Positions 38,682 to 44,328 of a DNA stretch of 64,000 bases are shown piece by piece; the stretch's first letter is position 1, and every line of letters starts with the position of its first letter. The stretch lies in assembly GCF_044647545.1 (NCBI RefSeq), contig NZ_CP172818.1. One strand, written 5' to 3'. Source of the stretch: Escherichia coli (GTDB lineage: Bacteria; Pseudomonadota; Gammaproteobacteria; Enterobacterales; Enterobacteriaceae). The translations under genes were made by a program, and so were the position numbers. The notes beneath the pieces were generated by a model. The model had not been told where the DNA came from. It did not search any database and saw only the letters and a program-made list of their open reading frames with translations.

Positions 38682-38758
38682 GCGCCCGTAGCTCAGCTGG
38701 ATAGAGCGCTGCCCTCCGGAGGCAGAGGTCTCAGGTTCGAATCCTGTCGGGCGCGCCA
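38682..38758 (+). tRNA. argX: tRNA-Arg (CCG)
   Basis: GCGCCCGTAGCTCAGCTGGATAGAGCGCTGCCCTCCGGAGGCAGAGGTCTCAGGTTCGAATCCTGTCGGGCGCGCCA folds as a 77-nt cloverleaf. Confidence 0.95.
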
Positions 38759-38815
38759 TTTAGTCCCGGCGCTTGAGCTGCGGTGGTAGTAATACCGCGT
38801 AACAAGATTTGTAGT

Positions 38816-38892
38816 GGTGGCTATAGCTCAGTTGGTAGAGCCCTGGATTGTGATTCCAGTTGTCGTGGGTTCGAATCCCATTAGCCACCCCA
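38816..38892 (+). tRNA. hisR: tRNA-His (GUG) with extra 5' G(-1)
   Basis: GGTGGCTATAGCTCAGTTGGTAGAGCCCTGGATTGTGATTCCAGTTGTCGTGGGTTCGAATCCCATTAGCCACCCCA. Confidence 0.95.
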
Positions 38893-38912
38893 TTATTAGA
38901 AGTTGTGACAAT

Positions 38913-38998
38913 GCGAAGGTGGCGGAATTGGTAGACGCGCTAGCTTCAGGTGTTAGTGTCCTTACGGACGTGGGGGTTCAAGTCCCCCCCTCGCACCA
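38913..38998 (+). tRNA. leuT: tRNA-Leu (CAG), class II; 86 nt here
   Basis: GCGAAGGTGGCGGAATTGGTAGACGCGCTAGCTTCAGGTGTTAGTGTCCTTACGGACGTGGGGGTTCAAGTCCCCCCCTCGCACCA; the C-run is 7 nt, leaving the 3' acceptor strand one nt short (see findings). Confidence 0.85.
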
Positions 38999-39040
38999 CG
39001 ACTTTAAAGAATTGAACTAAAAATTCAAAAAGCAGTATTT

Positions 39041-39117
39041 CGGCGAGTAGCGCAGCTTGGTAGCGCAACTGGTTTGGGACCAGTGGGTCGGAGGTTCGAA
39101 TCCTCTCTCGCCGACCA
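39041..39117 (+). tRNA. proM: tRNA-Pro (UGG)
   Basis: CGGCGAGTAGCGCAGCTTGGTAGCGCAACTGGTTTGGGACCAGTGGGTCGGAGGTTCGAATCCTCTCTCGCCGACCA. Confidence 0.95.
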
Positions 39118-39123
39118 ATTTTG

Positions 39124-39147
39124 AACCCCGCTTCGGCGGGGTTTTTT
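39124..39147 (+). terminator. terminator of the argX–hisR–leuT–proM operon
   Basis: AACCCCGC-TTCG-GCGGGGTT followed by TTTTTGTTTT. Confidence 0.8.
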
Positions 39148-39263
39148 GTTTTCTGTGCATTTCATCACTCTCCGTTCGCAATAAACGCCCGTAATAACTC
39201 ATTGTCCTACGGTATGATTTCGCCCTTAACGTATTGAAGGATGACTTCAGGCAAGGAGCGACC

Positions 39264-40640: not shown

Positions 40641-40656
40641 CAGCGATAGCGCCGGC

Positions 40657-42312
40657 TTAATCAGATTTAATCTGCGCGCGTGGTGGATATTTTTTCAGGA
40701 TCTCCATATACGCGTGCATTTCGGTCTGTAGCGGTACACCCATTGGGATATGGCGCACGCCGATGGAGTCGCTTTCCTGCGGATCGGTGTACAGGTTAAA
40801 CACCGACGATCCCGCCGTTTGCATTACTGTGCCGGTGAATCCACCCTGATACCCGCTCTGTGTATACGCGTACGGTTGCTGGATCAGGACGTGATACTTG
40901 AACTCATCCATACGCACAGCAGAAAGTTTACCGTTGAGGAAGTAGTGCTCGGCCTTACGGTTAGACTGACCATTTGTTCCCAGGAAGAAAGATGTCTGGT
41001 CCACACCATCGATAAAGGTGGTTTTCGGTACTAAATTCGCTACTTTCGCCCCAGGATGCCCCGCCAGATCCAGCGCCGTAGGGAAGAGATCCGCCAGATC
41101 GACAATGCCGTCAGATTTACGCGGTTGGATCATGCCTTTCCAGTAAACGAAGGTTGGCACACGAACGCCGCCTTCCCATGTAGAACCTTTCGCACCGCGG
41201 AACGGCGTGCGACCGTGCGGCGGAACTTCGGCTTCCGGACCGTTATCAGAGGTGAACACAATCAGCGTGTTATCAAGCTGACCGTTTTTCTCCAGTGCTT
41301 TATACAGATTGGCGAAGATATCGTTCATCTCCACCATGCAGTCGCCGTAAGAGGTGCGCGCCGGAGAGCTACCCGCATATTTCGCATTTGGGTAGTTATC
41401 GAAGTGACAGCCACGAGTGCCGTAATAGAGGAAGAAAGGCTTATCGCTCTTCGCCATCTTGTCGAGGAACTTAACGCCATATTCCATCCAGCGTTGATCC
41501 AGGTCTTCCATATATTTCGGCGTAATGTCGGCAATGGCTTCCTGTTCACCGCCGCGCACGGCATGAACGTCATCTTTGCTGAACGGCAGTTTTTGGATGT
41601 ATTCAGAACGATCCGGGCTCAGGGCGACTTCCGGGTTGACGTGAACATCACGCCATTCGGTATACATATCGGATACCGAGTTAAAGCCGCGGAAATCATC
41701 AAAGCCAACGTTCTGCGGCTGCGACTCTTTGTTTTCCCCCATATGCCATTTCCCGATGGCCTGAGTGACGTAGCCCTGATCGTGCAGCAACTGCGGCAGA
41801 GTGGTTAACCCTTGCAGACCGCCCGGTTGCCCGTACATTGGCGGCATCAGAATGCCGTGGTGGATGGAGTATTGTCCGGTAAGAATCGTGGCGCGGGTTG
41901 GGGAAGAACTCGGTTGAGAATACGCCGAAGTTAAAATCAGCCCCTGGCTGGCAACGGCGTCGATATCTGGTGTAGGGTTACCCACCGCCACGCCGCCGCC
42001 GTTAAAGCCAACATCCATCCAGCCCACATCATCCAGCAAGAAAACAACCACGTTCGGTTTCTTACCGGTTTTTTTCTCAAGTTCTGCCAGCTTCTGCTGG
42101 GTTTCTTTGTCTTGTGCAGGATGCTGCATCACCGGCATCATGTTGTCGGCAATAGTGGTCGCCGGTTTAACCAGATACTGGTTTGGGTGATCGTATCCGG
42201 CAAAGCCTTTGCGTGCGGTGGCGGTTGACGGGGTATCTGCTGCGTTGGCCATGAGTGGAAGAGCGGCGGCGACAGCTACAACAAGAAGTTTGGGTGAAAA
42301 CGAAAATTCCAT
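40657..42312 (-). CDS. aslA: arylsulfatase-family protein
   Basis: 551-aa ORF with signal peptide ([24 protein letters not shown]) and sulfatase active-site region ([11 protein letters not shown], which contains the CxPxR-type signature as SxPxR). Confidence 0.85.
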
Positions 42313-42721
42313 GCAAAATGCTCCGGTTTCATGTCGTCAAAATGTTGACGTAATTAAGCATTGATAATTGAGATCCCTCTCCCTGACAGGATGATTGCAT
42401 AAATAATAGTGATGAAAATAAATTATTTATTTATCCAGAAAATGAATTGGAAAATCAGGAGAGCGTTTTCAATCCTACCTCTGGCGCAGGTGATATGTAA
42501 GGCGGTGATGTTATATCGCGTTGATTATTGATGCTGTTTTTAGTTTTAACGGCAATTAATATATATGTTATTAATTGAATGACTTTTATTATTCATTATA
42601 TATATATGTAGAATCGTGCGCAGGAGAAATATTCACTCAGGAAGCAAAGAGGATTACAGAATTATCTCATAACAAGTGTTAAGGGATGTTATTTCCCGGT
42701 TCTCTGTGGCATAATAAACGA

Positions 42722-42928
42722 GTAGATGCTCATTCCATCTCTTATGTTCGCCTTAGTGCCTCATAAACTCCGGAATGACGCAGAGCCGTTTACGGTGCTT
42801 ATCGTCCACTGACAGATGTCGCTTATGCCTCATCAGACACCATGGACACAACGTTGAGTGAAGCACCCACTTGTTGTCATACAGACCTGTTTTAACGCCT
42901 GCTCCGTAATAAGAGCAGGCGTTTTTTT
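42722..42928 (+). ncRNA. glmZ: small regulatory RNA GlmZ
   Basis: GTAGATGCTCATTCCATCTCTTATGTTCGCC...GCTCCGTAATAAGAGCAGGCGTTTTTTT matches my recollection of E. coli GlmZ (~207 nt), with sigma70-like -10 (CATAAT) upstream and intrinsic terminator. Confidence 0.85.
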
Positions 42929-43029
42929 ATGACCGGATAAAGAACTGGTTACGTCGCTCCTTCATCTTCTTTAACTCTTACAAAACCCAAAGAATTCTTC
43001 ACCTTTCATTTCCCTATTCTTTTTCTCCC

Positions 43030-43106
43030 AAAAAAAAAAAAAAAAAAAAAAAAAAAAAAAAAAAAAAAAAAAAAAAAAAAAAAAGAAGAAAAAAATCAAA
43101 AAAAAA
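43030..43106. repeat. poly(A)/poly(T) homopolymer tract
   Basis: 55 uninterrupted A (43030–43084) continuing as AAAAGAAGAAAAAAATCAAAAAAAAA; between glmZ and the hemY 3' end. Confidence 0.9.
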
Positions 43107-43126
43107 TCGCCTCTGAACGAGGCGAT
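43090..43126 (-). terminator. putative terminator of the hemCDXY operon
   Basis: On the minus strand, directly after the hemY stop: ATCGCCTC-GTTCA-GAGGCGAT hairpin followed by a T-run (the start of the homopolymer tract). Confidence 0.6.
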
Positions 43127-43131
43127 ATAGA

Positions 43132-44328
43132 TTACTGTGACGGGTTATTCTGTAAGGTCAGCATCAAACCGTCGCGGCGCATCGCTGCAGCTTCTTCTGG
43201 TTTGTGCAGTCTGTCCAGCGCGTCGGCAAGCCATGCGTAATCGTAGGCGTCCGGACGTTGTTTCAGCGCCGCGCGGAAGGCGAGCGATGCTTCCTGCCAT
43301 TCGCCGTGCTTCATCAGCGACTGACCCAGTGTGCTCCACAACAACGGGCGATCGCCCACGTTTTTGATCTGTTGGCGCAGCACTTTTTCCAGCTGTTCCG
43401 GGTTATTGGTTTTCAGACGCGGGATCGGCAGCAGCAGGCGATCGTCATACTGGCGTTTCAGGCCGTCGATGATAATTTGCTGGGCGGTGTCATGGTCATC
43501 ACACTCAATAAGGTGTTCCGCCATTGCCACCTGTAACGCCACCTGATGACGCGTTTTCCGGCTTTGGTTTTTCCACCAGTTACGCAAACCTTCGCTACCG
43601 TTATCGGCACGCGCCTGATCCATCAGGCCAATCCATGCCTGTTGTTCCAGCATTGCACGATGTTCTTCATCGCCAACGTGGGCTTTCGCCATTGATGGGA
43701 TGATATCCAGCAGCGAACTCCATGCACCAGTGCGGATATACGCCTGTTCCGCCAGACGTAATACTTCCGGATGGCGTGGCGTAACTTCCAGCAGCTTATC
43801 AACGCCGTGACGTGCTGCATGGTTTTCATTACGGGCCAGTTGCAGACGTACACGGGTGATTTCTACCGGAATTGTGCCGTTGCCGGCCAGCTCCGCTGCG
43901 CGTTCCAGATGTTGGTTGGCGCGTGCTTCATCACCGCGTTGTTGCGCGGCTTCGGCAGCCAGCAGATAGTTCACCACCGGTTGTTCAGCGTGATCGGCAT
44001 TTTTCGCCATCAGCTTTTCAACTTGCTGATAATCGCCTTCCGCTAGTTTCAGCAGCGCCTGTTCGGTCTGCTTACGGGCACGGCGACGCTTACGTCCGAC
44101 AAACCACCCACGGGTGTGTGCGCCTGTGCGGAAGATCCGCCGCAGTAGCCACTCAATGGCAAACAGCACTACCATCGCCAGAATCAAAATAATCGCCAGG
44201 CCAGTGACGCTGGTTTCGATATTGTAGTTGTCGGTCTGAATCAATACGTACCCCTGATGACCGGCAATCATCGGGCCAACCACGATCCCCGCAATCAGCA
44301 AAACAAAGAGCAATAACACTTTTAGCAT
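43132..44328 (-). CDS. hemY: HemY (TPR protein, heme biosynthesis-associated)
   Basis: 398-aa ORF MLKVLLLFVLLIAGIVVGPMIAGHQGYVLIQTDNYNIETS... Confidence 0.9.
   Translation of the reverse strand: MLKVLLLFVLLIAGIVVGPMIAGHQGYVLIQTDNYNIETSVTGLAIILILAMVVLFAIEWLLRRIFRTGAHTRGWFVGRKRRRARKQTEQALLKLAEGDYQQVEKLMAKNADHAEQPVVNYLLAAEAAQQRGDEARANQHLERAAELAGNGTIPVEITRVRLQLARNENHAARHGVDKLLEVTPRHPEVLRLAEQAYIRTGAWSSLLDIIPSMAKAHVGDEEHRAMLEQQAWIGLMDQARADNGSEGLRNWWKNQSRKTRHQVALQVAMAEHLIECDDHDTAQQIIIDGLKRQYDDRLLLPIPRLKTNNPEQLEKVLRQQIKNVGDRPLLWSTLGQSLMKHGEWQEASLAFRAALKQRPDAYDYAWLADALDRLHKPEEAAAMRRDGLMLTLQNNPSQ

Follow-up and report, generated by a model that had tools for sequence, protein, structure and literature searches.

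The closest complete genomes to the DNA analysed here are those of ST648-type strains of Escherichia coli. All close relatives carry a gene for a 196-amino-acid hypothetical protein (WP_001260227.1) between glmZ and hemY and, after uvrD, a gene for a 300-amino-acid protein of the SAM hydrolase / SAM hydroxide adenosyltransferase family (SAM_HAT_N/C; WP_000751631.1). We compared a 64-kb E. coli stretch (the window) with ECONIH1 (stretches L009 and L010), FDAARGOS_497 and K-12, and searched 5426 complete E. coli genomes. The identity of the window as E. coli chromosome follows from its tRNA genes, Rfam matches and annotation transfer, and its genes run in the order rrnC, ilv, rep, rho, wec/rff cluster, thrP, argX-hisR-leuT-proM, aslB, aslA, glmZ, hemYXDC, cyaA, dapF, xerC and onward through uvrD, yigE, corA, yigF, yigG, rarD, pldA and recQ. 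Records with at least 99% identity number 117 over positions 38600-43300 and 83 over 57656-64000. An earlier sequence-only reading had listed five anomalies in the window, namely a run of 55 A residues (A55), a C7 run in leuT, a stop codon in yigF, a substitution in the CorA motif and a low-complexity block; all five are present, and they go far beyond what chance would produce. The comparison indicates that the A55 tract, the low-complexity block and the leuT C-run are almost certainly defects of record building that hide ordinary accessory genes, rather than products of a mutator or of new biology. The strain itself is an unremarkable ST648-type E. coli, and at three loci the record shows its accessory genes garbled or not at all.

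Outside the damaged sites the agreement with the relatives is complete. All 64 kb of the window are equal to ECONIH1 except for the defects listed below, three sites in 23S rRNA and one absent island; the comparison with FDAARGOS_497 gave the same picture, and the two relatives agree with each other at all defect sites. No ordinary private single-nucleotide polymorphisms (SNPs) were found against ECONIH1 in the single-copy DNA, about 60 kb outside rrn, and the 13.6 kb from 43106 to 56715, uvrD included, have zero differences from FDAARGOS_497 or ECONIH1.

The low-complexity block (block B) takes the place of the SAM_HAT-family gene, whose product in the relative matches PF01887 and PF20257 and which is destroyed in the window. 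Compared with ECONIH1, the block has 233 differences and is slightly shorter (940 nt instead of 952 nt); its GC skew is -0.33, and it contains runs of C11, A13 and T20. Its identity per 50 nt falls from left to right, from 1.0 through 0.92-0.96, 0.8 and 0.69 to about 0.57, recovers partially at 57350-57450 and returns abruptly to 1.0 at 57656; the right edge falls within 1 bp of the point, 57655, at which homology to K-12 resumes. Most substitutions copy the neighbouring base (163 of 196), and G residues of the reference are retained less often than C residues (62% vs 90%). No match to the block was found among the complete genomes, and the products of two of its open reading frames (ORFs) were absent from the protein-position index. 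The identity of 60-80% and the colinearity throughout indicate that the block contains real signal and is not padding.

The A55 tract belongs to a second block (block A), in which the A-run comprises exactly 55 residues at 43030-43084. The BLAST alignment to the relative breaks at 42961/43098, where the relative carries 571 bp, and a flanking mismatch at 43105 extends the gap; the window thus has 136 bp of junk where the relatives have 571 bp of a 591-bp gene on the minus strand. This gene, which is destroyed in the window, encodes WP_001260227.1, a protein with no hit in Pfam. Block A lies wholly within a 636-bp segment that K-12 lacks and begins 34 nt past the glmZ terminator. Thirty correct bases of the insertion are kept and are followed by a G-depleted copy and then by A55; the first 35 nt or so of the block correspond to the true sequence with its G residues dropped (alignment score 44 against 36.0 +/- 2.2 for shuffled sequences; z about 3.5). 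No match to block A, the A55 tract included, was found among the complete genomes, and an exact 44-mer from it was absent from large genome and metagenome contig collections. The gene itself (L003 5415-6005; window 42932-43132) occurs in about 93 of the 5426 complete genomes, which are ST648-type strains, 042 and a few others. Two other origins of the tract were considered. A poly(A) tail on GlmZ, or a retro-element, was rejected, because the A-run lies about 100 nt past the terminator and inside a degraded gene copy, and a resemblance to an FRT site or another engineering scar was a weak chance likeness, the native gene minus its G residues giving the better alignment.

These two blocks bear directly on how the anomalies had been explained. 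The sequence-only reading held that all other genes keep full-length reading frames and that the homopolymer and low-complexity anomalies fall in non-coding or RNA sequence. However, both large blocks overlie protein-coding genes present in close relatives, those for WP_001260227.1 and WP_000751631.1, and appear non-coding because K-12 lacks both genes. The argument that errors had spared the ORFs consequently fails, two accessory genes having been obliterated.

To place the damage, every structural difference that separates the ST648 layout from K-12 was listed across the window (features in Table 1). Five of the six differences of at least 40 bp are damaged or missing, namely those at 16612, at 16947-16968, at blocks A and B and at the corA island. 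The DNA at these differences is about 5% of the region and holds all of the structural damage. The garble in the ppiC-rep spacer is located inside a 55-bp segment that stands for the 830-bp yifN region of K-12, and over 16540-17040 the best identity among the complete genomes was at most 95.2%. The indels that set the lineage apart from K-12 by up to 30 bp are all exact (for example +30 in hemX, -15, -11 and +10), except for two 1-bp sites in G-runs at which FDAARGOS_497 itself is short. The sequence-only reading regarded the anomalies as independent of one another; the structural ones, however, all lie where the sequence departs by at least 40 bp from a K-12-type layout, suggesting a single systematic cause.

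Table 1. Coordinates of the damaged sites and of the genes discussed in the window.
Feature	Position	Strand	Remarks
4-bp loss, private	16612-16613	none	ATTCA -> T; just past ilvC, at a 41-bp K-12/ST648 indel junction
Garble, private	16947-16968	none	20 bases lost and 1 T gained; ppiC-rep spacer
leuT, tRNA-Leu(CAG)	38912-38997	+	C7 (38984-38990); C8 in K-12 and all close relatives
glmZ, small RNA	42722-42928	+	Intact; Rfam RF00083, 218.4 bits, same as relative; K-12 annotated alike
Junk block A, with A55	42962-43105	none	Replaces 571-579 bp of the relatives' sequence
uvrD	54466-56628	+	WP_000383407.1; intact, DNA identical to relatives
Junk block B	56716-57655	none	Colinear but degraded; 903-bp gene on the minus strand in relatives
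corA	58789-59739	+	Y276D (GAT, 59614-59616); silent changes 59616, 59619
Point of missing island	59739/59740	none	Relatives: about 1.57 kb with DUF943 and YPO3983 (DUF3289), then a 147-bp corA remnant
yigF	59782-60162	-	Q48*, CAA -> TAA, 60019-60021

The third locus is the end of corA. In close relatives an island supplies a new 147-bp end to corA, and the displaced end is left behind as a remnant (L003 23163-25824; L010 9261-11922). Among the 83 genomes of at least 99% identity, all best matches listed span about 8.06 kb at this locus, against 6.35 kb in the query, or about 9.5 kb when IS4 is present; this IS4 lies within yigE in FDAARGOS_497 and a few relatives (L003 20591-22793), yigE being intact in the window (57655-58419) and in most relatives. 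The window corA differs from that of ECONIH1 at three bases (59614, 59616 and 59619), so that the signature loop of its product reads DGMNF instead of YGMNF, the rest of the protein being identical to CORA_ECOLI. The tyrosine of the YGMNF motif is a highly conserved residue of the CorA signature loop (PMC3629940). A four-way comparison showed that the last 147 bp of the window corA (59593-59739) combine the intact and the remnant copy of the lineage in a mosaic, which follows the intact copy save for a 6-bp patch equal to the remnant, and this patch holds the GAT (Asp) codon. A bias towards the K-12 reference at the mosaic sites was looked for and not seen, since the lineage's intact copy is followed outside the patch. 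In both ST648-type genomes examined, FDAARGOS_497 and ECONIH1, the silent remnant has Asp (GAT) at the position of the YGMNF tyrosine. The best identity of any complete genome to the mosaic was at most 96.7% over 59585-59675 and at most 97.7% over 59500-59800. Judged from these sequences, the motif change may be a defect of the record, as it equals the lineage's silent remnant and comes together with the loss of the island.

Records outside the complete genomes give a more complicated picture, and the status of CorA Y276D is uncertain. The exact CorA-Y276D protein is NCBI WP_400165094.1, for which there is one E. coli entry; its longest listed contig, which may be the source of the present record, measures 4,499,902 bp, against 4.69-5.31 Mb for the listed ST648-type complete genomes. 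A full-length CorA with the same change was also found on three independent low-coverage metagenome contigs from ENA, which belong to different lineages and are 92-98% identical to the window (L006 3131-3169, L007 1929-1967 and L008 1062-1100), in three codon contexts (GAT GGC, GAT GGG and GAC GGG). On one of them, L006, Asp is in the intact corA and Tyr in the remnant, which is the reverse of the arrangement in ST648. Y276D in the metagenomes would be either a recurrent real change, perhaps with loss of function, or a recurrent error.

The two remaining anomalies are of other kinds. In leuT one C has been lost at 38984 relative to FDAARGOS_497, ECONIH1 and K-12, so that ARAGORN calls a tRNA of 86 nt where an 87-nt tRNA-Leu is annotated in the relatives and in K-12. 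With C7 the Rfam match to the tRNA model has shifted ends and scores 40.8 bits, against 48.5 bits with C8, and ARAGORN still calls the C7 form. This C-run is the only run of G or C of at least 7 bases in the window outside the junk. The sequence-only reading had proposed a scan for homopolymers, and in the window 1 of the 18 runs of at least 7 bases outside the junk is changed, that in leuT; the other 17, which include all the A/T runs, are unchanged. An identical leuT C7 is present in some 3-5% of the complete E. coli assemblies, spread over unrelated lineages (for example O157:H7 Z1767, NCTC11129 and E2865), a fraction that rests on evenly spaced ranks among 5429 records, with C7 in 3 of the 4 first ranks. 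Such sporadic occurrence in unrelated complete assemblies is a pattern typical of a recurrent homopolymer undercall, and the C7 of the window is plausibly an undercall as well, that is, the same kind of problem as the blocks. Alternatively, leuT, as one of four redundant tRNA-Leu(CAG) genes, may truly have undergone slippage. As a general observation, leuT C7 looks like a common homopolymer miscall of public 'complete' genomes.

The yigF stop is common to all close relatives, in which the gene is annotated as a pseudogene with an 'internal stop', and it is therefore a real pseudogene of the lineage; on a 97.5%-identical metagenome contig only a 73-amino-acid tail of yigF was called. The five flagged anomalies are thus not one phenomenon. 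The proposal of a localised sequence-quality or assembly problem is borne out for blocks A and B, which are private and start as degraded colinear copies, holds plausibly for leuT and may hold for corA, and does not extend to yigF.

Other differences among the genomes are not damage of the window. Differences in rrn from FDAARGOS_497 were considered as extra damage and rejected, because the first 1000 bases of the window match rrnC of ECONIH1 at 100%. The three remaining 23S differences probably reflect natural variation among rrn copies; two of them, at 3132/3134, form a paired variant of a 23S helix, which reads CCCCTTACCGGGG in the window and CCCCTGATCGGGG in rrnC of ECONIH1. In two G-runs, at L002 2294 (23S) and L002 6983 (yifB), corresponding to window sites 1327 and 6017, FDAARGOS_497 shows G5 and the window G6. 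These were rejected as errors of the window, since the short count lies in FDAARGOS_497: G6 is confirmed by K-12 at the 23S site, and at the yifB site the window is matched by ECONIH1, whose yifB is intact, while yifB of FDAARGOS_497 is annotated as 'frameshifted'. The G5 sites are probably homopolymer errors of FDAARGOS_497. In hemX there is a perfect (GGTGCA) x 7.5 tandem repeat at 44371-44415, which exceeds the K-12 length by 30 bp, and its identity in the relatives indicates a natural length polymorphism.

We consider it rather more probable than the contrary that the strain is an ordinary ST648-type strain and that the damage arose in the record, most likely in a consensus guided by a reference with a K-12-type layout. 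In such a procedure, for example a mapping-based consensus of long reads, the consensus would be poor at differences of at least 40 bp. At block B, the read bases of a long insertion would be stacked from the left anchor without realignment and would drift out of register, so that errors would grow from the anchor, neighbouring bases would be substituted and isolated G residues would vanish, with the length approximately kept and accuracy restored by the right anchor. At block A, a messy alignment of the flank might have led to the insertion being collapsed and padded, giving A55. The junctions of deletions would be garbled, as at 16612 and 16947-16968. The island lies between two direct repeat copies of 147 bp (the 3' end of corA and the remnant), which makes the alignment position ambiguous; the insertion between the repeats would have been dropped and a mosaic of the repeat copies left, with Y276D coming from the silent remnant. 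The change of C8 to C7 in leuT would be a homopolymer undercall at the only long G/C run.

The drift proposed for block B was simulated by a majority pile-up of left-justified, un-realigned noisy reads, which covered the true insertion of 994 nt and carried indels at a rate of 0.2-0.5% per base. In this model the consensus showed a graded, non-monotonic decay, a length of 993-995 nt and a depletion of G, and substitutions copying a neighbouring base amounted to 136/138 to 189/200, against the 163/196 observed.

Several points weigh against this explanation. While the privacy of the anomalies, the colinear graded block, the damage at structural differences and the lack of private SNPs are direct results, the specific pipeline is inferred. 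The excess of C (345 C observed vs 262-278 simulated) lies outside the simulation, as do the compression of block A, with 201 nt standing for 636, and the A55 tract itself. A 54-bp difference from K-12 at ilvA/ilvY is reproduced correctly. The base-level identity to ST648 is perfect while K-12 is 3-6% divergent, so that the reference was probably not K-12 itself. The Asp codon in intact corA on the three metagenome contigs means that Y276D of the window could be genuine. On the other side, the contig listed for WP_400165094.1, being below the ST648-type size, would suit a reference-bound consensus without accessory DNA, if it is the source of the record.

An origin of the blocks in single low-quality plus-strand read tails, from capillary or other sequencing with a decaying signal, left unclipped at the 3' side and pasted between contigs, is the main rival and is unlikely in our judgement, although it accounts for the gradient and the base bias. 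With the broadening of peaks, the basecaller would repeat neighbouring bases and lose the weakest dye (G). The one-way error gradient from left to right with its abrupt end is in accordance with such tails, as are the kept length, the neighbour-copy substitutions and the strand-specific loss of G and gain of C in both blocks; in addition, both blocks start shortly after strong hairpins, namely the glmZ terminator and a REP-like element after uvrD. However, 940 degraded nucleotides imply that the read was 1.5 kb or longer and recovered in part on the way, and read tails explain neither the placement at structural differences and the right edge exact to 1 bp nor the missing island and the small garbles at junctions. 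The very high number of WP_400165094.1, given the general course of accession issue, also suggests a recent record and not one of the capillary era.

For the corA locus alone, the loss of the island and Y276D might be genuine, through recombination between the 147-bp corA repeats with patchy repair of a heteroduplex. Cobalt resistance is a classical means of selecting for the loss of CorA function, the mosaic is consistent with a short conversion patch and a crossover within the last 27 bp, and the metagenome contigs provide independent occurrences of a full-length CorA-Y276D in three codon contexts. We nevertheless think this quite doubtful: the arrangement occurs in none of the 5426 complete genomes and the island is kept in all listed best matches of the 83 relatives, other accessory segments of the record are demonstrably garbled, and the tyrosine is highly conserved in the signature motif (PMC3629940).

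We give only a slight chance to an alteration after assembly, such as gap filling or padding with unknown bases written as A, or another in-silico step. The A55 tract would resemble a default fill, A presumably being the first symbol in 2-bit or argmax coding, and the junk patterns and junk-ORF products that were searched for are in none of the public collections searched. Block B, however, is colinear with the true gene throughout, at an identity of 60-80%, and there are neither N residues nor regular gap lengths.

Real mutations in a mutator or slippage-prone strain, with a defect in mismatch repair or uvrD, are hardly credible: the homopolymer change in leuT, the long mononucleotide runs and the yigF nonsense and corA missense changes, which look like real point changes, might recall such a strain, but the lack of a background of private substitutions over the 64 kb leaves the idea unsupported, uvrD, the one gene within the window among the mutS, mutL, mutH, uvrD and dnaQ that the sequence-only reading had proposed to check, is intact and identical to relatives, the A/T runs of at least 7 bases outside the junk are all unchanged, yigF Q48* is inherited by the whole lineage, the A55 tract is absent from the 5426 genomes, and 233 changes in a one-way gradient over 940 nt beside 13.6 kb of unchanged DNA are not a mutational pattern. 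Equally far-fetched is the view that the blocks are real DNA, two accessory genes, and accessory DNA alone, having been rewritten in place to graded low-complexity sequence ending in A55; this would imply a targeted scrambling process of a new kind acting on non-core genes. In a milder version the loss of the island and Y276D alone would be genuine, and a clinical lineage would then hold a natural CorA mutant altered in the selectivity loop.

There is no biological feature of interest in the anomalies, and their significance lies in the use of the record. Calls of variants, gene presence and pseudogenes from it are untrustworthy at sites of structural variation: the 196-amino-acid hypothetical gene, the 300-amino-acid SAM_HAT-family gene and the 1.57-kb DUF943/YPO3983 island are silently missing, and what looks like a motif mutation in CorA may be chimeric, joining two copies of a repeat. 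The breakage of ORFs fails as a test for errors when the judge knows only the gene set of K-12. Damage confined to layout differences, a left-anchored error gradient and neighbour-copy substitutions together form a signature for artefacts of this class.

Among known systems, a genotype deficient in mismatch repair or UvrD shares with the window only a superficial likeness, in the homopolymer change and the scattered point differences, whereas the changes in the window are clustered and graded. Unclipped Sanger tails are similar in that they decay progressively, show a homopolymer-like stutter, preserve the spacing and lose bases in a dye-specific manner, and differ in that here at least 940 nt are degraded with a partial recovery and that the structural-variant boundaries and the missing island are left unexplained. 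The leuT C-run resembles the homopolymer miscalls of long reads, with one base lost in the only G/C run of at least 7 and C7 scattered over about 3-5% of unrelated complete assemblies, and FDAARGOS_497 shows the same with G5 for G6 twice. The artefacts of a reference-guided consensus are alike in the restriction of damage to layout differences, the left-anchored growth of errors, the exact recovery at the right anchor and the loss of a repeat-flanked insertion as a mosaic, while single-copy collinear DNA is perfect; the A55 tract, the compression of block A and the strong excess of C set the window apart from the simple model of such a consensus.

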